From a virus: DNA of 64,000 nt. The translations under genes were made by a program, and so were the position numbers. Positions 28,936-62,135 of this stretch are shown here, in pieces. The DNA is taken from positions 1 through 64,000 of IMG/VR virus record IMGVR_UViG_3300011980_000002. One strand, given 5' to 3'. Each line of letters starts with the position of its first letter. The stretch's first letter is position 1. The notes under the pieces were generated by a model, which was not told where the DNA came from, searched no databases, and worked only from the letters and a program-made list of their open reading frames with translations.

Positions 28936-31900
28936 TTAATAATCATCTTCTCTGAAATTAGTTTGTCTAATCTCTTCTTCTACATTGTAGTTTAACATCA
29001 ATCCACTATTTACTAAATCAGATCTTAATCCCATTCCTATTAGATAGGTATCTACCGTATTTAGTGTAGTTTTATTTTTTACATCATAAGTTAAATCTTG
29101 ATATCTTACATATCCATTAGTAGCAATCTGTTGCATCATTTCATACTTAGCAACTCTATCATCTGCTCTAGGACCATTTAGTTCTTTTAATGTATCTTCC
29201 AATCCAACTGATACCATTAAGATATTCTCTAAGTCAGTTTCTCTACCATTCTTATCTCCACCAGTAACCTGTCCAGTTAATTCAGATACACTTGTACTAT
29301 TAATACTCATACCATTTTTCTTCATTACTGTCTGTTGTGTTCTCTTAATATGGATATATCCAACTGGTACAGGATTTTGTGTTCCAATTACCATATCTTT
29401 ATCCATAGTCATATGAGGCAAATATACAGTTTCAAATAATGGTATCTTAAGTACATTGGCAGCTCTTTCAATATCTTCTATCTTCATAGTATGCTCATAA
29501 TCAACTATATCCAATATAAGATATTCTTTATCGTTATTAAAGAACTCTTTAAAGAATTTATTAAACTCAGTATCTTCCATACCATCAAATATACCTTTAT
29601 ATTTTTTGGTATTAGTACCAGACTTATCAAAAGCTGTGAAGAATTTATATATTAAATCTTCCATATTCTTTCTTACAGCCGGACTAAATGGAGCTGATTT
29701 ATAAATCTTCTCTAATGACCTTTTTAGTTCTACAATACATTTATTTCCTAAACACATAACGATTATAGATGGTACCATACGTTTAAGAATAGAGTTAGAT
29801 GCAATTATAGTAGATATTTCTTCATCTGGTCTAAATTCACCATATGGTTCATAACCCTCTGGAACTATTTCTCCTATAGTATTTTTAAGAGCAGAGAAGT
29901 TAGCTATCTTACTACCAACCTCTAACGGCTCACTATGTTTAATGTAGAATTCTACTAATACGGAATCATCTACTTTATTACCTTTAATTACTCCATACTT
30001 AGATGGTTTAATAGCACCAGTAGGGTCTGTTATTAACATACCACATTTATAGATACTATCGGACTTGTCATACTTATCAAGTAATTTCTTTTTATCACTT
30101 ACCTTATCATAGTACTTCTTAATTATCTTTCTTAAAGATGGAGACATCTCTTCTAATTCTACAGTAGAATACACTTTAATATCTTCTATAACTCCACTAT
30201 ATTTAGATTTAATAATATTCTTACTACCAGCATCGATAGCATCTTTTATAGTAGGGTCTTTAGATAGAGTATCTAAGAAAGCATTCAACGATGCATCTTC
30301 AAATGAAGTGTCAAACTCTAATAATGAATCTCCAATTTGTATATGGTCTCCAACTTCTACCATTTTAAGTATATTGGAATTCTTACCGATATTAGCAGCT
30401 TTTTGGAATGTCATTTCTGTACTAGCTTCTCTTGCTAATTTGTGAGTAATAAATGTGGAGTCTTCCAATGTGTTATAAGTAGACATTAGTGCTACCTTAG
30501 TTAAAGTACCCAAGTTTAATCTACATCCATTGATATCTGACTTAGTAAAGAAATCTTTATTCCACGCTAATGGTTGATTAACTGTAAATTTCTGTCCTAC
30601 CTTTAAATCTGTAGTTAGTATATTAGACTCATAGAAACCACCACCACCATTCTTAACTATAACTGGAGCTAAGTTAATGGCTTGATGTTCCCCATTCTTA
30701 TATTCTACTACCATGATTTTTTTATTCTCATCTATCTCTAATACTTTACCATTATCTTTAGCATTAACAACAAAGTCTGTAGATAGATGATAACGACAAG
30801 CTTCCTCTACACCATTAGAAATTAATACAGGAGAAGAATTCTCTACTGGGATAACATGCTTAGACTGCTTTATAGCATGACCAATTCTTATTGGGTCATC
30901 ATATGTAGCTGCTGTAGGCATAGTTAATTCACCAGGACTAAATAAGTTAGCATCTTTTAAACTATCCAAATCTTTATCATCAGTCACCTTCATATAACCT
31001 CTAACTGAAGTTATATTAGGTTCTAAGGTTAGTACTCTACTAACACCTACTGAAGCATCTGGAGATGATATTGGTGATAGAATACCAGTCATTGTCTTAT
31101 CATAACATCTCTTAGGTACACTATAAGCATCGTCTAAGTTTATACCTCTCCAACCTTTATAAGAAGTAGTTCTACATCTTTCTAATTCTTGTACAGGGTT
31201 AAGTGTAGAATAATCTTCTACATTAGGAGATGATAATAATTTAGTAATTACACTATCTCTTGGTATATTAAATTTCTTTCTACCATTAGAATTCTTATAT
31301 GTGATATAATTCTTAGCTATTGTATCATATAATATAGCAGGAATAGTTTCTATAGACCTTATTCTTGCTAAATTTTGATTCATCTCAAAAGTATATTGAT
31401 TATCTGCTAATAGCTTAACTGCATATATTATAAGACTAACTATATCAGTAGGAAGATTCATATCGGTTAAGATTTCTTTAGTAATTGGGTCTATAGTAAA
31501 TTCATAAGTATTATCTAATGCATTAGCGATAGACATTTTTCCATATACTTGTAAGAATAATCTTAAATATGGTTCACTACTATCCATGTCTGCAAATGTA
31601 TATTTTTCAGTCTCTATAACTCTTAAACCATTGATCATTAAACCATATTCAGGTTTATCTTGGTATATCATATAACAATCACTAAACCTTATATAATTTT
31701 CATTAATCTTTAAATCATTAGGTTTCTTATCTGATATACGATATTCAAGATTCATTTTCTTAAGTACTGTAGACAATCCTTCCCATGCGCTACATAACAT
31801 AATCGCAGGTAAGTCTTTACCCATAGTCTTAATCTTTCCATACATTAATCTTTTTCCAGGTTTAACTGTTTTATATTCTTTAATTAATGCTTCATCATTA

Positions 31901-33879
31901 GTAGAGTTAAATATTAAATCTACTATACCTAAATCATCATCAGTAGTCTGAGTTTCTAAATCTATATAAACAGGTTTACCTTCACTAAACCCAATTAACA
32001 GTTTTCCTTCAGGTACTTTAATCTTCTTTAAAGCAATTTGTTTATATATATCTTCTTGACTGAAGAATATCTGTAATTTAGGAGATTTATATGCCCAGAA
32101 TATTTTAGATAATTCATCATACTCTATAGTGGTAATTCTATTATTATTCGTAACCATAGCATTACCCATTTCAAATCTCTTAGCAAAATCACTATTCTTA
32201 GCTAATATCTTTTTAAGTATAGCTATAGAAGATAATGTCTTAATATCTACTCTTCTAACGAACATCTTATTATAGTTAGTAACTATCTGTACAGTATCTT
32301 CTCCGGTTTTTACTAATGGTAAAAGAAACTCTTGGTTCATTATAAGTTTCTTATTACCACCTAAATACATAAATTTATTATCTATGAATTTAGGTATATC
32401 AAATTTCATAGTAGTTCTTTGTCTATTACCATCTTCTAATTCTACAGTGTATGTATCTACATAGTTAAGTTCATCTGATGTATCTTCTACTTTAATATTT
32501 CTTATAAAGATAGGTAATGATTTATCTGATAATGATGTTATTGCCTCAGATATATCTTTAGGCATTACTTTCTCTATATAAGTCTTATTATGATTAACAA
32601 ACTTAGACTTAGCCATATTTTTATTAGTAGACTTAATATGGTTAGATATATCGGTAGATGGTATTTCTACTTTATTAGTATTTAATTCATGTAAAGCTTT
32701 TAATGTCATATTACCAAGCATTATCTTCTCTTGGTTCTTTCTTAGTAATTCATCCCTAGCTGTACTTGCAGTAGACTTGGCTACTGTCTTTTTACCAAAT
32801 GAAGATTTATATAATTTCTCTATAGCTTTATTATCTTCTTCAGTAGCCATTTCAACTTCATTAGCGATAACTTCTTCTATTTCATCATCACTAGAGTTTT
32901 TAGCTACATCAGAACTCATTATTTTCTCTTCAACATCTTTAATCTTATCTTTAATGATATTAGCTACTTCTTTATCATCATCTTCAGTTTCTTCTTCCTC
33001 TTTATTATACTCCTCTAAATCAGTAACTTCATTTGGGTCTTCATTAATATCAGTATCTTTATCACCAGTAACTCTTTGCTTAATATTAGATACAATAGTA
33101 TCGTGAAGTTCATCCTTATTGATAGTCTCTTCATCAAGTTCTTTCTCTATACTAATATTAGCAGTTCTGTATAATCTCTTAAGTTCTGTCATTAATGTCG
33201 TATATGACTTATCATCACATTTTGATGGGTTAACTCTTACCGTATGAAGTTTATTAAAGATATAAAAATCTAAATTTATATCTTTAATTAATTCAGGTCT
33301 TTTAAGTAAGGTATAATATAACATATACACAGGATTATCTATTAATTCAATCACTCTTCCTTTAATGATATTCCTAAAGTTATTAATGTCTATTAATACC
33401 ATCTTCTCATTATACTTCTTTATTCCTGGAGTATTGAGAATTCCTTTAAAATAATCCCAGAAAGTTTCCATTTTAACTCTTGGTAATAATTTTTTAGTAA
33501 ATGTCTTATATATTTCAAAATACTTACTAAAGTCAAAGAATGTATTCCTATTCATATCATTCATATTAATATCTTGATATGGATAAGGATGTATAGAAGT
33601 TTTATTTTCTATCTCATTCTTAAATTCTCTTTTCTTGTTAAGTAAGTTTATATTATAGACTTTATGATATAACTTACCTCTATATCTTAATGGATAATAA
33701 TAATATTTATAATTATTGGTAGCAATATAATTGGTCTTATCATTAATGATATTAAACGACTCATTTCTGTTATTAGTCATTAATATAATAATATTATCTT
33801 TACCCATTGGATTTCCATTAGGTAAGGTTACCTTTTTTCTTGTAAATTTTAATTCAGGTATATCCTTTGGAGTTATCAT
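28936..33879 (-). CDS. Multisubunit RNA polymerase beta-like subunit, full-length (N and C halves fused), with a long acidic N-terminal extension
   Basis: NPVQELERCRTTSYKGWRGINL...GILSPISSPDASVGV matches the bacterial beta pattern NPL.E..H.RR.S..GPGGL...GR.CP.ETPEG.N.GL. DPIRIGHAIKQSKHVIPV matches the beta pattern NRALMG.NMQRQAVP. LTGQVTGGDKNGRETDLENILMVSVGLEDTLKELNGPRADD matches the beta C-terminal pattern QP..GK..FGGQRFGEME.WAL.AYGA...L.E.L...SDD. Confidence 0.75.
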   Translation of the reverse strand: MITPKDIPELKFTRKKVTLPNGNPMGKDNIIILMTNNRNESFNIINDKTNYIATNNYKYYYYPLRYRGKLYHKVYNINLLNKKREFKNEIENKTSIHPYPYQDINMNDMNRNTFFDFSKYFEIYKTFTKKLLPRVKMETFWDYFKGILNTPGIKKYNEKMVLIDINNFRNIIKGRVIELIDNPVYMLYYTLLKRPELIKDINLDFYIFNKLHTVRVNPSKCDDKSYTTLMTELKRLYRTANISIEKELDEETINKDELHDTIVSNIKQRVTGDKDTDINEDPNEVTDLEEYNKEEEETEDDDKEVANIIKDKIKDVEEKIMSSDVAKNSSDDEIEEVIANEVEMATEEDNKAIEKLYKSSFGKKTVAKSTASTARDELLRKNQEKIMLGNMTLKALHELNTNKVEIPSTDISNHIKSTNKNMAKSKFVNHNKTYIEKVMPKDISEAITSLSDKSLPIFIRNIKVEDTSDELNYVDTYTVELEDGNRQRTTMKFDIPKFIDNKFMYLGGNKKLIMNQEFLLPLVKTGEDTVQIVTNYNKMFVRRVDIKTLSSIAILKKILAKNSDFAKRFEMGNAMVTNNNRITTIEYDELSKIFWAYKSPKLQIFFSQEDIYKQIALKKIKVPEGKLLIGFSEGKPVYIDLETQTTDDDLGIVDLIFNSTNDEALIKEYKTVKPGKRLMYGKIKTMGKDLPAIMLCSAWEGLSTVLKKMNLEYRISDKKPNDLKINENYIRFSDCYMIYQDKPEYGLMINGLRVIETEKYTFADMDSSEPYLRLFLQVYGKMSIANALDNTYEFTIDPITKEILTDMNLPTDIVSLIIYAVKLLADNQYTFEMNQNLARIRSIETIPAILYDTIAKNYITYKNSNGRKKFNIPRDSVITKLLSSPNVEDYSTLNPVQELERCRTTSYKGWRGINLDDAYSVPKRCYDKTMTGILSPISSPDASVGVSRVLTLEPNITSVRGYMKVTDDKDLDSLKDANLFSPGELTMPTAATYDDPIRIGHAIKQSKHVIPVENSSPVLISNGVEEACRYHLSTDFVVNAKDNGKVLEIDENKKIMVVEYKNGEHQAINLAPVIVKNGGGGFYESNILTTDLKVGQKFTVNQPLAWNKDFFTKSDINGCRLNLGTLTKVALMSTYNTLEDSTFITHKLAREASTEMTFQKAANIGKNSNILKMVEVGDHIQIGDSLLEFDTSFEDASLNAFLDTLSKDPTIKDAIDAGSKNIIKSKYSGVIEDIKVYSTVELEEMSPSLRKIIKKYYDKVSDKKKLLDKYDKSDSIYKCGMLITDPTGAIKPSKYGVIKGNKVDDSVLVEFYIKHSEPLEVGSKIANFSALKNTIGEIVPEGYEPYGEFRPDEEISTIIASNSILKRMVPSIIVMCLGNKCIVELKRSLEKIYKSAPFSPAVRKNMEDLIYKFFTAFDKSGTNTKKYKGIFDGMEDTEFNKFFKEFFNNDKEYLILDIVDYEHTMKIEDIERAANVLKIPLFETVYLPHMTMDKDMVIGTQNPVPVGYIHIKRTQQTVMKKNGMSINSTSVSELTGQVTGGDKNGRETDLENILMVSVGLEDTLKELNGPRADDRVAKYEMMQQIATNGYVRYQDLTYDVKNKTTLNTVDTYLIGMGLRSDLVNSGLMLNYNVEEEIRQTNFREDDY

Positions 33880-47607: not shown

Positions 47608-48891
47608 GGAGATCTTGATACTAAACCCGGTGTTGCAGCACAATCAATTCTCGATAAAACTGTAAGATGGCATGACTCATTTTATGATAAAACATATACA
47701 GAAATTAAAGAATTATTAGATGCAAACAGGTCTAATGGTATTCTTTATATAGAGTATCATTATAATCAAATTGGATTAACGAACGAATGGTTAAAGAATA
47801 TATCTGATAAAATTGGTAATATGCTTACTGTAAGAAGAGAGATTCTCTTACAGAGAATGCATGGTTCAGATTTATCACCATATTCAAGAGAGTCTATAGA
47901 ATTCATTATGAGTTCTAAATGTGAACCTGTCGACCAGTTATTTATTAATGAGTATTTCATGTTTGATATTTATGAGCCATTAAAAAGGACTATTCCTTAT
48001 ATAGTAGGTATCGACTGCTCTACTGGTACAAGTTCGGATAATAATGCAATTACAATATTAAACCCTTATACAGTAAGACCTGTGGCAGAGTTTAAATCTC
48101 CATATATCGGAGAAACGGATTATGAAAACCTAATAGAAACATTGGTGTTAGAATATATTCCAAGAGCTATAGTATGTGTAGAGAGAAACCATGTTGGGGA
48201 TAGTATAATTGACCACTTATTAAATAAGTCAAGGATTGCTAATAACTTATATTTTGATAAGGATAGAGATTTAGTAGAAGCTAAGATGAGAGAAGCAGAA
48301 ACTGTAGAGTCAATGCTTAAAGCTAAGTCTAAAATAAAAACTACATATGGTGTATATACAACCGGTAAGTCAAGAGAAACGATGTTTGCAATACTATCAA
48401 GAAGAATTGAAGAGAATAATGAAGATTTCGTTACTGCTCATATTATTGATGATATTGCTGGTTTAATAAGAACTCCATCTGGTAAAATAGAAGCAAGACC
48501 TGGTGGACATGATGATAATATTATGTCTTACTTAATTGCGATGTATATTTATACTCATGGAAATAACTTAGCATACTTTGGTTTTTATAAGACAGATTTA
48601 TATGAAGATGTAGAAGAGAATCAAGGTATTATTACTTCTGATAGAGCTAGGGGTGTTCTTCCTAATGAAGTCGTATCGTCTATAGAAATTGAAGAAGAAA
48701 AAGATAGGATTCTTAATTATGAAGATATATTAAGAACTGCTATAAGTAATTCTCAACAAGGTTCTATGAGATTACATAGAAGTAGTGTTGGTAGTGATAA
48801 TCATTTTGATAATACACCAAATGGAATTGTTGAAGAAGAGTACTTTGAAGAATTGAATATGGATATATTTGATACACTTAATGGATTCTAA
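47608..48891 (+). CDS. terL: Large terminase, exon 2 (end of ATPase domain plus RNase-H-like nuclease domain)
   Basis: The acidic nuclease-type motifs IVGIDCSTGTSSDNNAITI and GGHDDNIMSYLIA are present. There is no independent SD or ATG; the track start at 47605 is a TTG inside the intron end. Confidence 0.75.
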   Translation, partial: GDLDTKPGVAAQSILDKTVRWHDSFYDKTYTEIKELLDANRSNGILYIEYHYNQIGLTNEWLKNISDKIGNMLTVRREILLQRMHGSDLSPYSRESIEFIMSSKCEPVDQLFINEYFMFDIYEPLKRTIPYIVGIDCSTGTSSDNNAITILNPYTVRPVAEFKSPYIGETDYENLIETLVLEYIPRAIVCVERNHVGDSIIDHLLNKSRIANNLYFDKDRDLVEAKMREAETVESMLKAKSKIKTTYGVYTTGKSRETMFAILSRRIEENNEDFVTAHIIDDIAGLIRTPSGKIEARPGGHDDNIMSYLIAMYIYTHGNNLAYFGFYKTDLYEDVEENQGIITSDRARGVLPNEVVSSIEIEEEKDRILNYEDILRTAISNSQQGSMRLHRSSVGSDNHFDNTPNGIVEEEYFEELNMDIFDTLNGF

Positions 48892-51290: not shown

Positions 51291-51320
51291 TATACATATA
51301 ATATTTATTTGTAAAATAAT
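51291..51320 (+). promoter_or_regulatory. Class-1 promoter-like motif
   Basis: tatacatataatatttatttgtaaaataat. Confidence 0.45.
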
Positions 51321-51342
51321 AAGTATTAAAGGAGAAAGAAAT

Positions 51343-51621
51343 ATGAGAAAGTCTGATATTTTAAATTACATGAATACGATAGATGATATGGAATGCTCTT
51401 GTAATCATATCATGAATATGCTTAAAGTTGGTATGTTAAATGAATTCGAAATTAGTTATCTTGAGAGATTTCTAAATAAAGAAGTTGTTGGTTTGAGTTA
51501 TATTGTGAAAGATCTTGGTGTCGAGATATTGGTTAATAAAACTAATGATATTATTACAGGAATGAAGTATATGATAAATATGATACGAAAAATTAAATCT
51601 AAAGAAGAAATAAATCATTAG
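51343..51621 (+). CDS. Small hypothetical protein
   Basis: 92 aa with the consensus leader TTAAAGGAGAAAGAAATATG. Confidence 0.55.
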   Translation: MRKSDILNYMNTIDDMECSCNHIMNMLKVGMLNEFEISYLERFLNKEVVGLSYIVKDLGVEILVNKTNDIITGMKYMINMIRKIKSKEEINH

Positions 51622-51670: not shown

Positions 51671-51700
51671 ATATATATATAATATTTACTTGTAAAATAA
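51671..51700 (+). promoter_or_regulatory. Class-1 promoter-like motif
   Basis: atatatatataatatttacttgtaaaataa. Confidence 0.45.
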
Positions 51701-51728
51701 ATATTATATATAAAAAGGAGAAAGAAAT

Positions 51729-52007
51729 ATGAAAACATTAACAAGATTAGAGGAATTGGAAGTTCTGGAAAAGGTTAGTAACCTCATAAAAGCTGCTGAT
51801 GATATTTATACTGGCAGCTTAAAAGTTAAGCTCTCTGATGAGAGATTAGCAAAGCTTCTCAGATATTCAATAAGAGCTGGTGAAGATATGAAGAGAGTTA
51901 GGCTTCTTGTGAGTGATATGTATATTCAGTCACAAGTTGACAGATGCATCAAGAATATGGGATACTTGGAAAAGCATCTCATAAAGCAAATCGCAGATAA
52001 TCAATAA
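51729..52007 (+). CDS. Small hypothetical protein
   Basis: 92 aa with the leader AAAAGGAGAAAGAAATATG. Confidence 0.55.
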   Translation: MKTLTRLEELEVLEKVSNLIKAADDIYTGSLKVKLSDERLAKLLRYSIRAGEDMKRVRLLVSDMYIQSQVDRCIKNMGYLEKHLIKQIADNQ

Positions 52008-52022: not shown

Positions 52023-52451
52023 ATGAGAAATAATTGGAGAATATATCTAAATGGAAGAGGTCTTGGTGGTTATAGACCTTTCTTAGAATGGGTTAAAAAG
52101 AACGTGAAATTGAGAACTGATAGAAATGGTCATCAGTTCATATTTGTAAACGACCTTTTACCATATAAAGGTAAAATGGTCGGTACTAATATTCATAACA
52201 GTAATTATCTGAATATTAGCACATGGTTCAACTCCAAGTTAATAGCATTCAAAGAGGCTGACAAGTTTGTTGAAATGATATTAATTGGAGAAGAATTGAA
52301 TGATCATCAAAAGAAAGTTGTTTCTAAAAACTATCCAATGTATGATCATATAAATCAACTCTGGCTCTACGATTCCAAAGCTGAGGAAAGGAGAAAGTGG
52401 TTGAGTTCAGTAGGTCTCGAAGACTGGGCTGAGTTCACATACATCGGTTAA
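52023..52451 (+). CDS. Hypothetical protein
   Basis: 142 aa with the leader CAAAGGAGAAAAATATG. Confidence 0.55.
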   Translation: MRNNWRIYLNGRGLGGYRPFLEWVKKNVKLRTDRNGHQFIFVNDLLPYKGKMVGTNIHNSNYLNISTWFNSKLIAFKEADKFVEMILIGEELNDHQKKVVSKNYPMYDHINQLWLYDSKAEERRKWLSSVGLEDWAEFTYIG

Positions 52452-52484
52452 ATAATATAGGGTATTAATTTACCCTATATTATT
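52451..52484. terminator. Bidirectional hairpin between convergent genes
   Basis: aataatatagggta / taccctatattatt, followed by tttttt. Confidence 0.6.
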
Positions 52485-53123
52485 TTTTTCTTGTAATTCG
52501 TATATTTTATTACTTAGTCCTAATATACCATTATCTGTACTATCATAAATTATAGATTTATCTATATATCTATTTAACTTTTCTTTATGATCCTCAGTAA
52601 ATGCTATACCATATTTTTTTATAAATGCGTTTAAATCACCATGAGCTTGTCTGTAATTGATAAATAGATTTCTTGTATGAACTTCTTCATGTACTGTGGT
52701 AGATAGCATTACTACTTGTACATGATTTCTTTGGTGCTCATCTAATACTACATTGGCAATTTTAAATGTGCTTATTTGCCAATTCTTTAATATAAAATAT
52801 TCTAATACTATACTACAATAATCGTATAAATTAAATATTGGACCATGATGCATTTCTATACTAACATCATCATCTGTTAAATTATGTAATACTTGACACT
52901 TATTAAGTTTTACTTGGTTCTTTAAATAGGCAATATACTTATTATATCTATCATCAGTTCTTACTAATTTCTCTATCTCTTTAACATAACTATTATAAAC
53001 CTCTAAATTTGCAAAATATTCTTTAGTCTTATAAAATGGTAATATATAATTAGAAGAATCTGAGTCTATTGCTAAATTATTCCTATCTTTTAAATAAATT
53101 ATATTTGGTAAATCTTTTGCCAT
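52470..53123 (-). CDS. Conserved His-motif protein, paralog of 7803..8465; transcribed divergently from the tubulin gene
   Basis: DRYNKYIAYLKNQVKLNKCQVLHNLTDDDVSIEMHHGP aligns with KEYKDYIRFLKDNLDMDRCAFFNQ..MRVSIEIHHEP. Confidence 0.55.
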   Translation of the reverse strand: MAKDLPNIIYLKDRNNLAIDSDSSNYILPFYKTKEYFANLEVYNSYVKEIEKLVRTDDRYNKYIAYLKNQVKLNKCQVLHNLTDDDVSIEMHHGPIFNLYDYCSIVLEYFILKNWQISTFKIANVVLDEHQRNHVQVVMLSTTVHEEVHTRNLFINYRQAHGDLNAFIKKYGIAFTEDHKEKLNRYIDKSIIYDSTDNGILGLSNKIYELQEKNNIG

Positions 53124-53240: not shown

Positions 53241-53275
53241 TAGGGCGGAGATGATATCAAGAGCCAACAAAGGAG
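53241..53275 (+). promoter_or_regulatory. GC-rich conserved 5' leader element, copy 2
   Basis: tagggcggagatgatatcaagagccaacaaaggag lies immediately upstream of ATG 53286. Confidence 0.45.
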
Positions 53276-53285
53276 AAACAGAATT

Positions 53286-54416
53286 ATGTTACAAGCAGGA
53301 GTAATAGGAATAGGAAATGCAGGAAGCCAGGTAGCAGTTTTAGCTGCACAGAATAATATTAAATCTGTAGTTATTAACTCATCTGAGAATGACTTAGCAG
53401 TAATCCCAGAATCTGTTCATAAGTTCCTAGTAGGTGACTCAAGAGGAGCCGGAAAGAACAGAGACGCTGCTAAAGGATTTTTAAAGAGTTCCATAACTTC
53501 TATTCTTAATAAAGAAGATTTCATGGAGTTTATGGATGGAAATGATGTTACTTTTGTAGTATCATCAACAGGTGGTGGAACCGGTTCAGGTATTGCACCA
53601 ATAATGACAGAGATTTTATCTCAAGCATTTCCGGATACATTTGTTATACTTGTGGGTATATTACCTACATTAAATGAGGCATATTCAACACAGGTTAATA
53701 CTGTGGCATTTGTTAAAGAGTTATATGAGAAGATTAATAAACCAACTTATATGCTCTATGATAATGAGAAGATGTCTTCAGAACCATCTCATATCATGAT
53801 GGAATCTATCAATCAGTCTATTATAGAAGATATATTAGTATTGGTTGGTAAGTATAATTATGCTACCAAATATTCTTCTATAGATGAGAAAGATATGTCT
53901 ATGATAATATCTACTCCAGGAAGATTGGTAGTATCAAGACTGGTCAATTTCAAAGAGAAAGATTTAGACCAGTCAGGTATTGATAGTAGAGTTGAAGATA
54001 TTCTCAAGAGTAACACTCATGCAGAACTTCAAAGAGATAAGGTTATTAAGAGAAGTGGAGTTATCGCTAATCTTAATGAGTCTATAGCATCTAAGTTCGA
54101 TGACCATATGACAACCTTGCAGAAGTTCGTTGGTGTTCCGGTAGAAGAATTTACCCATATTTCTATCAATGTGGAGAAAGCATTACCTAATAATGTATTC
54201 TTCATTGGTTCTGGTTTATCTCCAGTATTTGATAGATTAACCAAGATTAATGAAAGAATAGAAGAGATTGATGCTTTACAAAATGATAGTGAGAATATCT
54301 CAGATGCACTATCATCTGTAGATATGGATAAAGCTAATGAAAAGAAAGATTATAGACAGAAGAAAGATAATGATGCACCATTAGCTCTGTCAGATATATT
54401 CAAGAACTTTTCATAA
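53286..54416 (+). CDS. Tubulin/FtsZ-superfamily GTPase (PhuZ/TubZ-like phage cytoskeletal protein)
   Basis: The N-terminal nucleotide loop is GVIGIGNAGSQVA. The tubulin signature is SSTGGGTGSGIAPIM. The T7-like segment is SSIDEKDMSMIISTPG. There is an acidic linker and a hydrophobic C-terminal peptide, LALSDIFKNFS. Confidence 0.8.
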   Translation: MLQAGVIGIGNAGSQVAVLAAQNNIKSVVINSSENDLAVIPESVHKFLVGDSRGAGKNRDAAKGFLKSSITSILNKEDFMEFMDGNDVTFVVSSTGGGTGSGIAPIMTEILSQAFPDTFVILVGILPTLNEAYSTQVNTVAFVKELYEKINKPTYMLYDNEKMSSEPSHIMMESINQSIIEDILVLVGKYNYATKYSSIDEKDMSMIISTPGRLVVSRLVNFKEKDLDQSGIDSRVEDILKSNTHAELQRDKVIKRSGVIANLNESIASKFDDHMTTLQKFVGVPVEEFTHISINVEKALPNNVFFIGSGLSPVFDRLTKINERIEEIDALQNDSENISDALSSVDMDKANEKKDYRQKKDNDAPLALSDIFKNFS

Positions 54417-54462
54417 GCAATAATATCAATTATTATCAATGATATTTAGACACTAAACATAG

Positions 54463-54540
54463 TCTAAGGTAGATGTAATATAAATTAATAACCAATATTA
54501 CAATTTGGTAAATTTTATATTACACTACCTTAGATTTTTT
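54463..54540 (+). terminator. Long imperfect hairpin (about 24-bp stem) plus T6
   Basis: tctaaggtagatgtaatataaatt ... aattttatattacactaccttaga, followed by tttttt. Confidence 0.6.
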
Positions 54541-54583
54541 GTGTATGGATATAAATTTTTGTTTATTAAGGAAAGGAGATACA

Positions 54584-55558
54584 ATGGGAAAGAAGAATAA
54601 AGATATCCGTAATAGTAATACTAATAACGGATTTAAAATCCCAGACAGTGTAGTCAGATTTATTAAAATGGACTACAAGAAATTCAAGAAGAAAAACTCT
54701 GGTCTTTATGACAGTAAGAAAGAGACTAAGAGAGCTTATTATTATGAACTACTGGATTTATTTCCAGAGGTTATACAACTTCTTGTTAGATATGGATATG
54801 TAAAAGAAGTTGTTGAAATCAAGAATTCTCTTTATGAGAAATTAATAGACCCTTCATTTATTAAGGTATTAACACATGCTATTGAGAATGAAGAGGATAT
54901 TGACAATATTAAATTATTCCCTATAGTAATTAGGGATGTTGTAGAATCTGCAAAGATTCAAGAAGCTAAGGATAAAGAAGAAGATCCAAATGCTTCAGAG
55001 TATGATGTATCTGATTTAATTGAACTAGCTCAATTGATACTTAAGAAGAAGCTAAAGAAATTAAAGAAGAAAGAAGTTGACCCAGATGTAGCATTTGATT
55101 GCTTATGTATAATACCAGATGATAAGGTATTAGAAGATAAACAGATCATATTTAAGTTAAGAACCCTGATGGCTGTGTTATATGAACATGCTAAAACTAA
55201 GACTATTAACTTTGATGTGTTGATAAAGTCTATGTTCCCTGGAAAGTATGCTAGTCAGATTATAACTTTCTGTCTATTAGAAAGAAAGGATAAATTTGCT
55301 AACTTCGATGATAAACAAAAAGAATTCTTCATTCAGATTAATGAGTGGATATTCAATATCATGGAAGAAATGGATAAGAGCTCAATAGAGTCTATTCTTA
55401 ATTCTTATATAGAAGCAAGAAAGAGAGATGATGGACAAAATAGGGATACCAACAGAAGATATTTCCTTAAATCTTTACCTGAGTCAGAGTATCCAAGAGT
55501 ATATAAAGTGATTAAGCATTTATTAGAAGTAAATCCGGATGCAGATAAATTCTTCTAA
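54584..55558 (+). CDS. Hypothetical K/E-rich protein downstream of the tubulin gene (start moved to ATG 54584)
   Basis: AAGGAAAGGAG lies 6 nt before ATG 54584. The track start 54539 lies inside the terminator tail. Confidence 0.55.
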   Translation: MGKKNKDIRNSNTNNGFKIPDSVVRFIKMDYKKFKKKNSGLYDSKKETKRAYYYELLDLFPEVIQLLVRYGYVKEVVEIKNSLYEKLIDPSFIKVLTHAIENEEDIDNIKLFPIVIRDVVESAKIQEAKDKEEDPNASEYDVSDLIELAQLILKKKLKKLKKKEVDPDVAFDCLCIIPDDKVLEDKQIIFKLRTLMAVLYEHAKTKTINFDVLIKSMFPGKYASQIITFCLLERKDKFANFDDKQKEFFIQINEWIFNIMEEMDKSSIESILNSYIEARKRDDGQNRDTNRRYFLKSLPESEYPRVYKVIKHLLEVNPDADKFF

Positions 55559-55681: not shown

Positions 55682-56575
55682 ATGTTTATTTATAATTATG
55701 AATTCGGTACTGAAACTGTTAATTGGGGATTAAAAGAATTTAAATCAATGGATTTCATTGGTACAGATTCTATTAAGTTCTACGGTAATAATAACTTCTT
55801 AAGAGTTAATGATAAGACTAATATAGAAGTTAAACATGGTACCTATTATGACCCAGCTATTATTATACCTAACGCTAAGAGTTTACAGATTAATGCTACC
55901 AATATGCATATATCAACTCTTAATGATGATGGTATTGATGATTTAGCTGCAATAATTACATTAGAAAATAAGAATTATCGTTTGGTAAAATATTCAGTGG
56001 GATTTGAAGCTGATAAAGCAGATTGTCAAATACTTAAGCAAGTAACAACTCCTAATCATAGGGTTTTATTATTACTATTTGATGGTAATAGTGAGTCTGT
56101 ATTCACTCTTATTTTATTTAATAATACTCTTAAGAGATATGAGTACTGGACAATATCTCATAATAAAGATGGTAAGTTGATACTTAAGAATTTAACCGGT
56201 AGTGATAAAGAGATTAATAAAGCCTTAGAAGAGTTTGAAACTTATGATAAGAAGAATAAGTGTAAGAGCTGTAAGATTTCTTTATATTATAATTTCCCTA
56301 TGACTTATTATGTAGTTACTACCAACAGTAATACTACTATAGGAAATCTTATAAATGATAGAAACTATAAGATTATTCGTATAGATGATAAGTATAAAGA
56401 GAATTGTACTACTAAGGAAGTAATTGATGCTGTTAATAAAGTATATCAAATTCCTAAAGGTACTATATGCTTATCATTATATGATATTAAACCAAAGGAT
56501 ATTTACAAATATAAAGATGAAAATATTAAGTATATACTTAGATTATATAATGATGCAACTACAACTGATTTCTAG
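55682..56575 (+). CDS. Hypothetical protein (start moved to ATG 55682)
   Basis: GGAAAGGAAA lies upstream of ATG 55682. The track start 55640 lies inside the preceding hairpin. Confidence 0.55.
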   Translation: MFIYNYEFGTETVNWGLKEFKSMDFIGTDSIKFYGNNNFLRVNDKTNIEVKHGTYYDPAIIIPNAKSLQINATNMHISTLNDDGIDDLAAIITLENKNYRLVKYSVGFEADKADCQILKQVTTPNHRVLLLLFDGNSESVFTLILFNNTLKRYEYWTISHNKDGKLILKNLTGSDKEINKALEEFETYDKKNKCKSCKISLYYNFPMTYYVVTTNSNTTIGNLINDRNYKIIRIDDKYKENCTTKEVIDAVNKVYQIPKGTICLSLYDIKPKDIYKYKDENIKYILRLYNDATTTDF

Positions 56576-56655: not shown

Positions 56656-57153
56656 ATGAAAAAAGCTAAAGTAGCCAGAATTAATCTGGGTGGAAAGAAC
56701 ATCATAGAGTTTCAAACATCTATGCTTAATAAGCATGGAGAACTTAAAGGTAGAAATAAGAAGGAAACTGCTCTTCTTAGAGATACCTGTATGCATCATA
56801 AGAAAAATAAGAAAGGTAAGAATAAGTCAAGAGTAGAACTTGAGGATGGTCAAGCTTGCTGTGCAATGTGTCAGGCAGAGTTTAGAGCTCAACCATATAG
56901 TAAATCTGAGAGAAAAGAAGTAATTGGTGAGGGTAAAGAACTCGCTAACCATACTAAGTTCATGGCAGCAGCTTGTGGAGCTGATGAACAGACTCTTAGG
57001 ACATTAGCAGAAATCTCTGTAGGACTTACTAATCTTGGTAAGATAAATAAATCCTTAACCAAGATAGTATCTAAAGAAGATGCTATTAAGAAGAAGAATA
57101 AGAAGAACAAAGGTAATACTTCTGAAAGCTTAGGAAGCTGGAGAATAAGGTAG
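56656..57153 (+). CDS. Basic Cys/His-containing protein (possible zinc-binding nucleic-acid binder)
   Basis: 165 aa, K-rich, containing CMHH...CCAMC. By eye its GC content is noticeably higher than its surroundings. Confidence 0.5.
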   Translation: MKKAKVARINLGGKNIIEFQTSMLNKHGELKGRNKKETALLRDTCMHHKKNKKGKNKSRVELEDGQACCAMCQAEFRAQPYSKSERKEVIGEGKELANHTKFMAAACGADEQTLRTLAEISVGLTNLGKINKSLTKIVSKEDAIKKKNKKNKGNTSESLGSWRIR

Positions 57154-57773: not shown

Positions 57774-58696
57774 ATGAGAAATAACAATCAAGCAACGAGA
57801 GAGAAATTGTATAATATCATTGATATGATGATAAGCAATGGGGATATAAAAGATACCCTCGAGATACATGTCATATATGACAAATTGAAAAAATGCTGTG
57901 ATAATATTGCTGAAAAGATCGCTGATAAGAAATATGAGGTAACTGATATTACTGAATACAGGTCTGAACGTGAGGTACATCGTATAAGAGTGTTAAAAGA
58001 TTTTGGGATGTTAAGAAAGGTGATTTAGGTGGATTTGTATCTTCCTATGATAATCTTTCACAATACGGTGATTGTTGGATATATGATGACGCAGTTGTCA
58101 TGAGTGAAGCAAATATTATCGAAGATGCTAAAATTAAAAATAACGCTACTATATGTGGAACGGCTGTAGTGAGAGGAGATTCTGTAATACAAGATGATTG
58201 TGAGGTATATATGCAATCAATAATAAATGATTCTTATATGTCTGGAAATTGTTGTTTATATAATGTGGAAGTTCATGACAGCAAACTCGAAGGCTGCCTA
58301 TATCTAAATCAATCCAGTATACAGAAAAGTAATATAATAGCAAATGACGCCAGAATACATAATAAAACTTTTATACATGACTCTAAACTTAAGTTAGCTG
58401 ATGATAGTGATATTTATAAAAGCTATATAGATAGGTCAACTATACAAGGATATATTACACTAAATAATGTTGAGTTGAGCAATAGTAAAGTTATTAATAA
58501 AGATGAAGAAGTCTATATTGCTGATAAAATTATTGACGGTGCTAATGTAACAAGTACTAACACTATTACATCATTTTCATTAGATTTATACGATAACCAA
58601 GAAGAATGTGATATAGTCTTCTATAAAAATAGAAATGGTAACACCACTATTACTATATCTCACAAATCTGGTGTTCACGATTCTATTGAAATTTAG
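57774..58696 (+). pseudogene. Left-handed beta-helix (LbH) array gene 1, disrupted by a 1-nt deletion near 58005..58008
   Basis: The gene reads gattttgggatgttaagaaagg where its paralogs read gattttggagatgt(t/g)aagaaagg. The frame-1 ORF ends at 58028 (..RVLKDFGMLRKVI*). The reading continues in the next frame as GDLGGFVSSYDNLSQYGDCWIYDDAVV into track ORF 58100..58696. Confidence 0.6.
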
Positions 58697-58732
58697 ACAT
58701 CTGGTATAAAATCTAGTAAGTAATACAATAAT

Positions 58733-58771
58733 AACGGATACTACTTCAATAGTAGTATCCGTTATTTTTTT
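58733..58771 (+). terminator. Hairpin plus T-run
   Basis: aacggatactact / agtagtatccgtt, followed by attttttt. Confidence 0.65.
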
Positions 58772-58785
58772 ATAATATTAAAGTT

Positions 58786-58814
58786 ATCTATATAATATTA
58801 ATTTGTAATAAAAT
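58786..58814 (+). promoter_or_regulatory. Class-1 promoter-like motif
   Basis: tatctatataatattaatttgtaataaaa. Confidence 0.4.
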
Positions 58815-58840
58815 AATATTATATTAAAGGAGAAAAAAAT

Positions 58841-59812
58841 ATGGAAAAGAATAATAGTATTAATAATAAATACGAAATAACCGATATTGTCGGTTATAGG
58901 TTTAAGAAGAAAGTATATCGTATAAGAGCATTAAAAGATTTTGGAGATGTTAAGAAAGGAGATTTAGGTGGTTTTGTATCTTCCTATGAAAATCTTTCCC
59001 AAGAAAATGACTGTTGGATATATGATAACGCAGCAGTTATGGATAATGCTATATTAGAAGACAATTCTACTATTCATAATAGGGTCATCGTGTGTCATGA
59101 TAGTATTGTCCGTTGTAACTCTAAAATTTCCAAAAGTTGTAGAATATATGACTCTACTAAGATAACAAATTCTACAATATCTGGTAAATCCGTATTAAGG
59201 AATATTAATATAGTTGGAAGTACAATAAATGGAGTTATTCTCTCATACAAAGGTAATGTGTGGATCGAGTACTCTACTATCAGGGGTTCACTATTATTAA
59301 GTGAATCATTAATTTTTAATAGTAAGATTATTTCAGATAGAGCTTCTATATATCAAGACTCGGTAATTATGAGATCGAATATAAGATTATTAAATGGGTC
59401 AGATATATATAGTTCATGGGTATATGAGTATTCTAATATATATGCTAATCTCAAATTACATAATAGCAAGATATATAGATCCGATATTATTGGTGATATT
59501 AATAACATGATTAAAATTGTAAATAAACGAGTAGAGATGGGATATATTACATGTACAGAAGATATCATATCACTTTCAGTTGACATAAATACGATAGGTT
59601 TTGATACATTCAATTATTACCCATCTATTAATTGCCGGAATACTAGAAATATTAAGCTCATAATATCAACACAACTTACATATTATAATAACATAGATGA
59701 TGTAATTAAATCCATTAGTGAACATATGGGAACATCTGCTCCTGCTTATTTTGTAAAAACGCTTAGAAACTTTGACAAGCTCGCTAAAGAATATTTTAAT
59801 ATCACTGAATAA
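58841..59812 (+). CDS. LbH array gene 2 (type B)
   Basis: It has the conserved module NKYEITDIVGYRFKKKVYRIRALKDFGDVKKGDLGGFVSSYENLSQENDCWIYDNA. This is followed by six-residue periodicity (AVMDNA ILEDNS TIHNRV IVCHDS IVRCNS KISKSC RIYDST KITNST ISGKSV), which is typical of hexapeptide left-handed beta-helices. Confidence 0.65.
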   Translation: MEKNNSINNKYEITDIVGYRFKKKVYRIRALKDFGDVKKGDLGGFVSSYENLSQENDCWIYDNAAVMDNAILEDNSTIHNRVIVCHDSIVRCNSKISKSCRIYDSTKITNSTISGKSVLRNINIVGSTINGVILSYKGNVWIEYSTIRGSLLLSESLIFNSKIISDRASIYQDSVIMRSNIRLLNGSDIYSSWVYEYSNIYANLKLHNSKIYRSDIIGDINNMIKIVNKRVEMGYITCTEDIISLSVDINTIGFDTFNYYPSINCRNTRNIKLIISTQLTYYNNIDDVIKSISEHMGTSAPAYFVKTLRNFDKLAKEYFNITE

Positions 59813-59832
59813 ATTAAAGGAGAAAAAGAAAT

Positions 59833-60909
59833 ATGGAAAAGAATAATGAAATACTAAATGAGAATAGGTTAACCGAGAAAACAATTAGCCCTGAAGATTA
59901 TCATAAGCTACTATTAATGCTTGATGATGATAGAAAGAAATTCGTGAACGATCCGATAGATAAAGTCGTTAATATTAATAACAAATATGAGATAACTGAT
60001 ATTGTAGGTTATAGATTTAAGAAGAAAGTCTATCGTATAAGAGCATTAAAAGATTTTGGAGATGTGAAGAAAGGTGATTTGGGTGGATTTGTATATTCTT
60101 ATGAAAACCTTTCTCAAGATGACAACTGTTGGATATACGATAATGCAGTTGTTATGGAAAATGCAACTGTTATCACAGATGCTAAAATTAAAGGTAATGT
60201 TACTGTATATGGAGAAGCTGTAGTAAGAGGAAATTCTATAGTAGAAGATAGTTGTTGGATATATGGGGAATCTTTTATTGTGGATTCTCATATATCTGGA
60301 AAATGCCGTCTATGTGATACAAAAGTTGATAGAAGTAGACTTAAAGGATATATATTAGACATACTCAAAGGTTCCCTTATACAAGATTCATATATTAGAG
60401 GTTGTTTATATCTAAAGTCTTCAGATATTACTAGAAGCAATGTAATATCCGATACTGCGTATATATCCGGTAGGACTTATGTATCAGGTTCTAAGCTTAG
60501 ACTGATGAGAGATAGTGATATTTATAAATCCTACATATCCATGTCATCAACTATACGAGGTTATGTTAAATTAGATTGTGCTAAGTTAGTTAGAAGTGAA
60601 TTCGTTAACATAAAAGAAGAAATTTATGTTAAGAATAAAACTATTGCTGATGGATATATCACAAACACTAATGACGCTATATCATTCTCGGTAGATTTAC
60701 ATGATAAGAAAGAAGAGTATGAGCTATTCTTCTATAAGAATAAAGGTGGTAATATTGTTATATATTACAGATTCTGGATATTTGACTCTATTGATAAACT
60801 GATATCACATATAAAAAATAATAATAAGTCTAATGATAATATTAAAGCCATTGAAGTATTCAGGTATTTTGATAAGGTTGCTAGGGAATATTTTGCTACC
60901 AATAAATAA
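59833..60909 (+). CDS. LbH array gene 3 (type A, closest to the pseudogene copy)
   Basis: The same conserved module follows a 49-aa N-terminal extension. The C-terminal ISFSVDLHDKKEEYELFFYKNKGGN aligns with ITSFSLDLYDNQEECDIVFYKNRNGN of gene 1. Confidence 0.65.
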   Translation: MEKNNEILNENRLTEKTISPEDYHKLLLMLDDDRKKFVNDPIDKVVNINNKYEITDIVGYRFKKKVYRIRALKDFGDVKKGDLGGFVYSYENLSQDDNCWIYDNAVVMENATVITDAKIKGNVTVYGEAVVRGNSIVEDSCWIYGESFIVDSHISGKCRLCDTKVDRSRLKGYILDILKGSLIQDSYIRGCLYLKSSDITRSNVISDTAYISGRTYVSGSKLRLMRDSDIYKSYISMSSTIRGYVKLDCAKLVRSEFVNIKEEIYVKNKTIADGYITNTNDAISFSVDLHDKKEEYELFFYKNKGGNIVIYYRFWIFDSIDKLISHIKNNNKSNDNIKAIEVFRYFDKVAREYFATNK

Positions 60910-60929
60910 TTCAAAGGAGAAAAAGAAAT

Positions 60930-62135
60930 ATGGAAAATAATAGGTCTACTGAAATTAAAGACTTAAAATTCGAGTTAGAGAATTTAATGGTTAATAATGA
61001 TAATATTAAAGAGTTGGGAGACTATATTCACAAATTATCCGGTATATTATTATCTAAAACGATACTAATGAATGAATTATACAACTATTCCGGTGATAAT
61101 AGAAATTATCAAAAATTATTAAGTGAAACTAAGAAAATATCAAAACTTATAATAAGAGCTCAAGATAGAATAGCTCTATTAGATACTCATTATTCCAATA
61201 ATAAATATGAGATAACTGATATTGTCGGTTATAGGTTTAAAAAGAAAGTATACCGTATAAGAGCATTGAAAGATTTCTCAGATGTTAAGAAAGGTGATTT
61301 AGGTGGATTTGTATCTTCCTATGAAAACCTTTCACAATATGGTGATTGTTGGATATATGACAATGCTGCTATTATAGATAATGCTCTATTAGAAAATGAT
61401 TCTACTGTGCATAATATGACTATCGTGTATGATAATAGTATTATTAGAGGGGAATCTAAAGTATATAATAGTACTAGAATATGTGGAAGTTCATATATAA
61501 ATAATTCTAACATATTCGGCAAATCATTTCTAAGAAATGTGTTTATACAAGGTAGTGGAATAAAAGGAAATCTGATAACTGATAAAAATAAATCAAGTAT
61601 TATTTGCTCATATATCAGAGGTTCATTATCTTTAAGAGGTTCTCTTATTTCCGGTTCCAGTATTATTTCTGACATGGCGAATATATATCAGGGTTCATCA
61701 ATAATTAAATCAAATCTGAGATTGTGTAAAAATTCTCATATCAATAACATCTATATGGAGAATTGTGCAACTGTGTGTGGTAAAATGATGTTAAAAAATA
61801 CTACTATAACAGATTCTAAAATAAATGGTAATAATGATAATGAAATTAAAATCATAAATAAGAGAATACTTCATGGATGTATCAAAGATACAAATGATGT
61901 TATCTCACTATCATTAGATGTTGCTGGTGCTATTACAGATTCTACTGATAAATTATGTTATTATAGGAACGAAAATGATAAATTGTATATATCATTTTAT
62001 TTCTCATACTTTAATTCTATTGAAGCTGTAATTGAATTTATAAAAGATCAACAGAGAGTATCATTTACTGAAGATTATATAGAGTTATTGAGACAGTTTG
62101 ATAAGGTTGCACAAAATCATTTCAATAGTAACTAA
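60930..62135 (+). CDS. LbH array gene 4 (type B)
   Basis: The same conserved module follows a 90-aa helical extension. The beta-helix region aligns best with gene 2 (DNALLENDSTVHNMTIVYDNSIIRGESKVYNSTRI vs DNAILEDNSTIHNRVIVCHDSIVRCNSKISKSCRI). Confidence 0.65.
   Translation: MENNRSTEIKDLKFELENLMVNNDNIKELGDYIHKLSGILLSKTILMNELYNYSGDNRNYQKLLSETKKISKLIIRAQDRIALLDTHYSNNKYEITDIVGYRFKKKVYRIRALKDFSDVKKGDLGGFVSSYENLSQYGDCWIYDNAAIIDNALLENDSTVHNMTIVYDNSIIRGESKVYNSTRICGSSYINNSNIFGKSFLRNVFIQGSGIKGNLITDKNKSSIICSYIRGSLSLRGSLISGSSIISDMANIYQGSSIIKSNLRLCKNSHINNIYMENCATVCGKMMLKNTTITDSKINGNNDNEIKIINKRILHGCIKDTNDVISLSLDVAGAITDSTDKLCYYRNENDKLYISFYFSYFNSIEAVIEFIKDQQRVSFTEDYIELLRQFDKVAQNHFNSN

Follow-up and report, generated by a model that had tools for sequence, protein, structure and literature searches.

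The 64-kb window analysed here, positions 1 to 64,000 of the IMG/VR virus record IMGVR_UViG_3300011980_000002, comes from an uncultured jumbo phage with a genome of about 220 kb, has a G+C content of about 27% and contains no tRNA gene. On its plus strand, at 53286-54416 with the stop codon included, lies a gene that starts with ATG and encodes a predicted TubZ-like guanosine triphosphatase (GTPase) of the tubulin/FtsZ superfamily, 376 amino acids long. Two systems built on phage tubulins have been studied, namely, PhuZ, which centres the phage nucleus in phiKZ-like phages, and TubZ, which together with TubR partitions the c-st plasmid prophage. The sequence AAAGGAG at 53269-53275 (+), 10 nt 5' of the ATG, reads as a Shine-Dalgarno element. 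An initial annotation, made from the letters of this stretch, had described the product as a phage-encoded tubulin/FtsZ homolog with a GGGTGSG signature, an N-terminal glycine loop and a T7-like acidic segment, and all three are present and conserved. Their conservation was read from two alignments, one of 20 family sequences with 49-90% identity (A1) and one of nine sequences, references included, that was made with MAFFT (A3). The nucleotide-binding loop T1, G8-I-G10-N11-A-G13-S-Q15 (53307-53330, +), was located from the family and reference alignments; G8, G10, N11, G13 and Q15 are invariant in A1, and G10 and G13 are also invariant across the TubZ, FtsZ and PhuZ references in A3. The tubulin signature of loop T4, G96-G-G-T99-G-S-G102 (53571-53591, +), is invariant in A1, and so is S198-I-D200-E-K-D203 (53877-53894, +) in the T7 loop and the start of helix H8, the segment with the catalytic acids that are supplied to the next subunit. 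Both in A3 and in a profile alignment with c-st TubZ, D200 corresponds to D197 of c-st TubZ and D209 of E. coli FtsZ, D203 corresponds to E200 and D212 of these two proteins, and T99 corresponds to T100 of c-st TubZ. T100A and E200A are GTPase mutants of c-st TubZ that have been used experimentally (PMC5322520), and since T99 and D203 map onto these two positions the catalytic residues count as intact; a loss of the T7 residues in alignment, named in the initial annotation as a ground for refutation, was not seen. The protein scores 55.8 bits against PF00091 (Tubulin; cutoff 33) and 30.8 bits against PF13809 (Tubulin_2; cutoff 27), and its membership of the tubulin/FtsZ superfamily is far above chance. 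It is predicted from its residues to be a catalytically intact filament protein of the tubulin/FtsZ type, which would polymerise.

The fold was modelled with AlphaFold2 on A1 (predicted local distance difference test score, pLDDT, 81; predicted template modelling score 0.83). The model has a globular core up to about residue 333, with the two-domain fold and the core helix H7, followed by a disordered stretch at residues 336-364 (pLDDT <50) and a terminal helix at residues 368-373. In Foldseek it matched more than 1000 PDB entries at E<=0.001, and the best 50 of these are all TubZ, CetZ or FtsZ structures, with no PhuZ entry among them. The best match is c-st TubZ (E 1.3e-20, template modelling score 0.81 on the target), followed by CetZ (1.7e-19), B. 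cereus TubZ (2.8e-17) and FtsZ (about 1e-16). With E values of this order, about 1e-20, to TubZ, CetZ and FtsZ and with PF00091 above its cutoff, the identification as a phage-encoded homolog of tubulin and FtsZ stands. In a library of viral structures PhuZ of Noxifer was matched at 9e-12 and ranked below two "cell division" proteins of uncultured phages.

When sequences rather than folds were compared with the PDB, c-st TubZ was again at the top (3e-13 with the single sequence and 9e-19 with the profile), followed by archaeal CetZ and then by FtsZ and B. cereus TubZ, and no PhuZ entry appeared at E<=1e-3 in the sequence or profile search. Against the family profile the B. pumilus plasmid tubulin scores 131 bits, the P. 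megaterium pBM400 protein 127, phage G gp138 118, c-st TubZ 65, E. coli FtsZ 22 and phiKZ PhuZ 8; the alignment of this profile with full-length c-st TubZ (3V3T) starts at residue 23 and runs through the tail to the C-terminus. The best PHROG match is phrog_17961, which in a control c-st TubZ matches at 827 bits as its own family. The match to phrog_4733, annotated "tubulin PhuZ", is weaker (1e-12), and since c-st TubZ matches phrog_4733 equally well (1e-14) it is generic. The C-terminal domain specific to PhuZ, PF22334, is unmatched at E<=1, whereas phiKZ PhuZ, run as the control, scores 128 bits. Identity with FtsZ was rejected because the protein reaches 39.5 bits with the TIGR00065 equivalog, for which the cutoff is 295.2, and no NCBIfam model claims the protein. 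A CetZ label, assigned automatically by one source, was also rejected because it is not backed by a curated model and CetZ scores below c-st TubZ; the contexts of the tubulin family are all phage contigs, and neither an archaeal origin nor a position in the CetZ clade was found. In a neighbour-joining tree with 100 bootstraps the family is a clade (94%) that stands apart from the clade of Bacillaceae plasmid and phage G proteins (91%). An apparent attachment to PhuZ in this tree was disregarded because its support is 14%.

The C-terminal part of the protein consists of a linker and a short conserved tip. The linker, residues 334-365 (54285-54380, +), is flexible as judged by the pLDDT of the model, the alignment and the composition. 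It had been called acidic in the initial annotation, which is true of its first half, but its second half is mixed to basic, and the whole linker contains nine aspartate or glutamate and six lysine or arginine residues. It is variable in A1 save for the invariant D346. The protein ends, as had been claimed, with LALSDIFKNFS, residues 366-376 (54381-54413, +), a putative docking peptide for which conservation and the model predict a short helix. I371 is invariant and F372 and F375 are at least 90% conserved in A1. The pattern phi-phi-x-x-aromatic is found within the last 16 residues of 154 of the 167 full-length relatives (92%) as against 2.8% of 16-mers drawn at random from these proteins, and these counts support the terminal peptide as a selected feature. 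Unguided alignment by MAFFT put the tails in one register, with LALSDIFKNF of the window protein beside IDVASIFDKF of P0075, IDINDFFSKY of c-st TubZ and LDIPAFLRKQ of E. coli FtsZ. The anchored consensus of the family tails is [VI]-[DN]-[LVI]-x-[SD]-I-F-x-[KD]-[FY]; a strict pattern to which FtsZ and c-st TubZ both conform is present in 34% of the family tails against a background of 0.1%, and a minority of distant family members have IPDFL at the C-terminus. With the tails in register and some relatives ending in IPDFL, the likeness to the D-I-P-x-F-L peptide of FtsZ that had been pointed out earlier holds at the level of the motif. In c-st TubZ the tip of the tail contacts the upper subunit in the filament, binds the TubR-tubC segrosome and modulates the binding of TubY (PMC5322520). 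Going by the alignments, the nearest homologous tail whose function has been studied would be that of c-st TubZ and not that of FtsZ. Alignment and conservation thus give the protein a flexible tail with a conserved tip as in TubZ, and by analogy the tip may serve for docking. What the initial annotation missed is that the tail is shared with the studied tail of c-st TubZ and that the tubulin gene forms a conserved module together with two orphan genes downstream. Profile, fold and tail together therefore assign the protein to a large uncharacterised TubZ-like clade, which appears to be distinct and to belong neither to FtsZ nor to PhuZ.

A word-indexed search found 776 homologs, mostly of about 375 amino acids and many of them on contigs of 200-295 kb; when 1.84 billion representatives were searched exhaustively with the profile, 178 clusters (50% identity) had E<=1e-30 and 794 had E<=1e-10. 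The family members come from human- and animal-associated samples. The identical tubulin protein is encoded on contigs of 216 and 223 kb, and a copy with 90% identity was found both in a Human Microbiome Project scaffold and on a contig of 210 kb. Relatives with 42-49% identity lie on contigs of 187-258 kb that are binned with metagenome-assembled genomes (MAGs) of Lachnospiraceae, Herbinix and Clostridium, and relatives with 24-29% identity occur in Bacillaceae isolates. The co-binning of relatives with MAGs points weakly to a host among Clostridia-type Firmicutes. A DNA search with 15 kb found no match among deposited phages, and in a protein search of the phage collection phage G was the sole match even at E<=10; the tubulin therefore has no cultured close relative.

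For the neighbourhood of the gene we compared 81 tubulin loci; loci are designated by L numbers. The spacer between the tubulin gene and the next gene, d1, contains a hairpin (54442-54552, +) of -39.3 kcal/mol (z = -7.7 against shuffles) that is followed by a U-run and is terminator- or attenuator-like. The hairpin is nearly identical in relatives with 90% identity, and the same spacer in L007, L016 and L035 has equally stable hairpins of unrelated sequence. It suggests attenuation that would keep the tubulin in excess. The gene d1 (54584-55558, +), with the Shine-Dalgarno sequence GGAAAGGAGA before its ATG, encodes an orphan all-alpha protein of 324 amino acids that is a candidate partner or adaptor. 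It adjoins the 3' end of the tubulin gene on the same strand in 57 of the 81 loci with a median gap of 82 nt, and it is homologous across loci with tubulins that are just 30-50% identical, including the distant IPDFL-type locus L005. When the search was anchored on d1, 12 of 12 loci were on tubulin-bearing contigs. The AlphaFold2 model of d1 is all-alpha with a pLDDT of 91; neither Pfam (23 members scanned) nor a sequence-profile search of the PDB gave a match, and no MerR or coiled-coil match was found.

The gene d3 (56656-57153, +) encodes a basic, zinc-ribbon-like protein of 165 amino acids (22% lysine plus arginine and 9% aspartate plus glutamate) with zinc-type ligands C-x-H...C-x2-C, a candidate nucleic-acid binder. 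Among the 57 d1-type loci 45 have it, on the same strand and some 2.1 kb downstream, and C45, H47, C69, C72, G160 and W162, the last two in a terminal G-x-W, are kept in at least 32 of 33 distinct orthologs; it has no match in Pfam, PHROG or the PDB. Neither d1 nor d3 has a homolog in the 50,697 deposited phage genomes, phage G among them; the plasmid collection was not searched. The membership of d2 (55682-56575, +), a fast-evolving gene for about 297 amino acids in a conserved slot, is uncertain. A gene for 295-327 amino acids occupies this slot in L001, L003 and L106-L109, its sequence similarity is detectable in two of the 81 loci, and neither a family nor the PDB gave a match for it. Nothing useful came from scanning ten neighbour genes with Pfam and PHROG.

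In a nested tubulin subclade (IMG/VR loci L047-L069, L077 and L083), which has tails such as INPSDIFKKFMK, the slot of d1 holds an AAA+ ATPase of about 430-460 amino acids with the Walker A motif GKPGTGKST. Remote homology between d1 and this replacement gene of about 440 amino acids was considered and rejected, the probability in hhalign being 0.6% and the replacement being the AAA+ ATPase. The exchange of d1 for an ATPase indicates that a partner was swapped within the family.

No match to TubR or TubY was found in the window or in the 81 loci by blastp and phmmer with TubR and TubY of c-st and three other proteins from the TubR position. The gene 5' of the tubulin gene is divergent and encodes 217 amino acids, so that a TubR does not lie directly upstream, and d1 sits downstream in the place of a MerR-type TubY. 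The earlier statement that neither chimallin nor TubR can be recognised in the window agrees with these scans and with those for chimallin and their controls described below. The tubulin module is located among replication genes (DnaB, SF1 helicase, RecA-like and SbcC-like), with GyrB and GyrA downstream in relatives, and this location fits a role in the positioning of DNA.

Several other features were observed around the module. The 217-amino-acid neighbour (52470-53123, -) contains an HHGP...HEEVH motif and matches phrog_12252, of unknown function (E 1e-43). Of 57 related loci 21 also have this gene, but typically about 5 kb off, and it is therefore not a member of the tubulin module. A perfect 15-bp inverted repeat with a T-run at 52450-52485, between this open reading frame (ORF) and a convergent one of 142 amino acids (+), is likely a bidirectional terminator. 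The 36-nt AT-rich element TATACATATAATATTTATTTGTAAAATAATAAGTAT is present twice, at 51291-51349 and 51672-51735, 381 nt apart, and each copy is followed by AAAGGAGAAAGAAATATGA, a ribosome-binding site and start codon; the element could be a phage promoter motif before small genes. Between d3 and the gyrase genes there is a tandem array of paralogs (58100-62135; phrog_5070/phrog_7964, function unknown) that has three to five ORFs in the otherwise identical strains L106-L108 and faint Hexapep matches in relatives. The largest orphan in the window is an ORF of 1252 amino acids (17387-21145) with no Pfam or PHROG match.

The window also encodes beta-type proteins of a multisubunit RNA polymerase (RNAP), a divergent DnaB, a superfamily 1 (SF1) helicase, a RecA/KaiC-like ATPase, an SbcC-like protein and a large terminase. 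The RNAP subunit of 1647 amino acids is closest, with 31-36% identity, to those of Listeria LPJP1, Staphylococcus SA1, S6 and MarsHill, Yersinia phiR1-37 and Bacillus AR9 and PBS1, as against about 25% identity to phiKZ-type phages. According to a 2026 review, AR9-like jumbo phages are outside the Chimalliviridae and are without chimallin (PMC13282480). No homolog of the window tubulin was detectable in AR9-like phages. Chimallin had no match among the ORFs of the 64-kb window or at <=10 kb from the tubulin gene in 80 loci, and in the controls PF25677 and phrog_4795 both recognise phiKZ gp054; a phmmer search with phiKZ gp054, which has little power to detect a shell protein that has diverged, also found no match. 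A shell gene is likely absent from the phage genome, of which the window is 64 kb out of about 220 kb.

The gene for the 1647-amino-acid RNAP protein (28936-33879, -) apparently fuses segments that AR9-like phages carry as separate genes, and residues 1388-1542 of its product match phrog_23439, which is annotated "hydrolase". The gene for the large terminase is split into an N-terminal part (45669-46625) and a C-terminal part (47605-48891) with an HNH endonuclease ORF (46618-47430) between them. Among contigs with the identical tubulin, L108 has the HNH ORF, and L106 and L107 are without it yet still carry the terminase as two ORFs; in L001, the relative with 90% identity, the terminase gene is single and intact and encodes 705 amino acids. 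The split looks like the insertion of a mobile intron or homing endonuclease that is polymorphic in the population.

We lean, without great confidence, towards a cytomotive system of the TubZ type that works without TubR and positions phage DNA, with the tail docking to the next subunit or to the phage adaptors d1 and d3. Subunits would assemble head to tail such that D200 and D203 complete the GTPase site of the next subunit, which would hold GTP through its T1 and T4 (GGGTGSG) loops, and GTP hydrolysis would make the filaments dynamic. The disordered linker of about 30 residues would present the short amphipathic C-terminal peptide. This tail would most likely dock on co-inherited phage partners, that is, on d1 and possibly on d3 as a nucleic-acid binder, because TubR and TubY were not detected, d1 and d3 are inherited with the tubulin gene and the c-st tail docks an adaptor. 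Docking of this kind would couple the filaments to phage DNA and thereby position or partition it in the infected cell, probably of a Clostridia-type host, and the hairpin between the tubulin gene and d1 may set a high ratio of tubulin to partner expression.

A number of observations weigh against this proposal. The d1 protein has no fold match in the PDB (best E 0.096 in Foldseek) and no recognisable DNA-binding fold, and its charge is about neutral, with 59 lysine plus arginine and 57 aspartate plus glutamate residues. That d1 and d3 lie next to the tubulin gene is gene adjacency and does not prove a physical interaction. There are no iterated tubC-like repeats in 50.8-58.2 kb, just AT-rich repeats in two copies. 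The tail of the window protein is slightly degenerate in that it has alanine where the family has the acidic D/N position. Since the nested subclade keeps a similar tail despite the replacement of d1, the main target of the tail may differ from d1 and may be the tubulin itself or a host protein. The phylogenetic placement that the initial annotation had proposed as a check came out firm for the family clade and weak for the deep nodes of the tree, where bootstraps are 14-47%. Finally, it is from sequence and models that the clade is known and that we infer polymerisation, the partner of the tail, the nature of the cargo and what the hairpin does.

A classical type III partition system in the style of c-st, serving a plasmid-like prophage or pseudolysogen, is improbable in our judgement; here a TubR and a centromere would exist but would have diverged too far, or lie too far away, to be recognised. 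In its favour, every one of the nearest relatives that have been studied is a TubZ of the partition type, from non-mobilizable Bacillaceae plasmids and the plasmid prophage c-st, and whole contigs of relatives of about 200-260 kb are binned with Lachnospiraceae and Clostridium MAGs. However, in pBM400, the B. pumilus plasmid, phage G and c-st a gene for 81-101 amino acids abuts the start of the tubulin gene, which is the TubR layout, whereas no small gene does so here. The negative searches for TubR and TubY and the lack of iterated repeats nearby, both given above, also speak against it. Moreover, no integrase, ParB or repressor was recognised in about 44 of the 53 window ORFs of >=100 amino acids, and the relatives of the RNAP beta-type protein are virulent-type jumbo phages.

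Less likely still is that the tail mimics the FtsZ peptide of the host and binds FtsA, SepF, EzrA or similar proteins, so that the filaments are anchored to the membrane or division is blocked. We find it just as doubtful that a retained or mimicked FtsZ peptide plugs into FtsA, SepF or EzrA, either tethering a filament that positions phage DNA to the membrane or jamming division, while d1 and d3 provide a TubR-independent link to the genome. The family tails are in register with LDIPAFLRK of E. coli FtsZ with three hydrophobic positions kept, and the frequency of the strict pattern, the literal IPDFL ends of distant members and the retention of the tail in the subclade without d1 all agree with mimicry. 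Against this, the partners of this motif in c-st TubZ are TubR-tubC and TubY rather than divisome proteins (PMC5322520), and the conserved proline is missing in most family tails, that of the window protein included. In addition, the core is far from true FtsZ by the TIGR00065 score (39.5 against 295 bits), the comparison was made with FtsZ of E. coli, and an amphipathic motif of ten residues can arise by convergence.

A spindle of the PhuZ type, by which a nucleus with a chimallin wall would be centred and rotated as it is in phiKZ-like Chimalliviridae, with the tail used for filament contacts only, is very unlikely even though this is a jumbo phage with multisubunit RNAP genes and a phrog_4733 match, a divergent shell gene could lie outside the visible 64 kb and the tails of PhuZ and c-st TubZ are described as alike in a review (PMC7950403), because PhuZ reaches just 8 bits against the family profile, PF22334 is unmatched, the phrog_4733 match is generic, PhuZ is missing from the best 50 fold matches, no chimallin was found in the window or near the tubulin gene with positive controls and the RNAP beta-type protein is nearest to phages without chimallin (PMC13282480); the placement with the PhuZ spindle and phage nucleus offered in the initial annotation is therefore not upheld.

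The window gene would thus represent a large uncharacterised third group of phage tubulins, found in jumbo phages that resemble the AR9-like phages without a nucleus, in which the TubZ-type motor and tail appear to have been kept and the adaptor genes exchanged. Should the module of tubulin with d1 and d3 be confirmed, one would learn from it how cytomotive filaments come to be connected to new cargo adaptors, and there would be a way into the cell biology of jumbo phages in anaerobic Firmicutes. To our knowledge, the cell biology of these phages is almost unstudied. The common register of the TubZ-type tail and the FtsZ peptide suggests that the docking peptide may predate the split between FtsZ and TubZ. 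Should the tail prove to mimic the FtsZ peptide with d1 and d3 as the genome link, it would be a third phage cytoskeleton, distinct both from PhuZ with its nucleus and from TubZRC.

Compared with the known systems, the PhuZ proteins (phiKZ gp039 and 201phi2-1 gp59) are the most distant reference. They are likewise tubulins of jumbo phages with their own RNA polymerases, they have the T7 DxxD in register, and their C-terminal tail matters for assembly, but they have the PF22334 domain, a different tail sequence and a phage lineage that is less AR9-like. The C-terminal peptide of FtsZ (DYLDIPAFLRKQAD in E. coli) is similar in being short and conserved and in following a disordered linker, with the acidic and hydrophobic positions in register; FtsZ differs in its core and in its usual proline, and the window gene lies outside a division-gene context. 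Archaeal CetZ (3ZID, 4B45, 4B46) is the second-best group, at about 56-58 bits with the profile, and shares the G-x-G-x-A-G type of T1, but these are cell-shape proteins of archaea without a phage context. The TubZ-like proteins of phage G (gp138), pBM400 and the 124-kb B. pumilus plasmid have the top named profile scores, with 23-30% identity over nearly the full length. They are of similar size, about 370-376 amino acids, and the tail of the phage G protein is SLSDRLTRF as compared with LSDIFKNF here. They differ in the gene of about 100 amino acids that abuts or overlaps the tubulin start and in forming a separate clade with 91% bootstrap. The best match among solved structures, in sequence as well as in fold, is TubZ of C. 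botulinum phage c-st (CST189; 3V3T, 4XCQ). It is also phage-encoded, has T100 and E200 where the window protein has T99 and D203, and consists of a core, a disordered linker and a conserved tail tip, the tips being IDINDFFSKY in c-st, VDLKSIFSKF in the family consensus and LALSDIFKNF in the window protein. Its identity to the window family is about 21-27%. The c-st gene has tubR upstream, a MerR-type tubY downstream and tubC repeats, on a plasmid prophage of 186 kb, whereas the window phage, with no detectable tubR, tubY or tubC, is an RNAP-encoding jumbo phage in which the tubulin gene has the orphans d1 and d3 as its neighbours.

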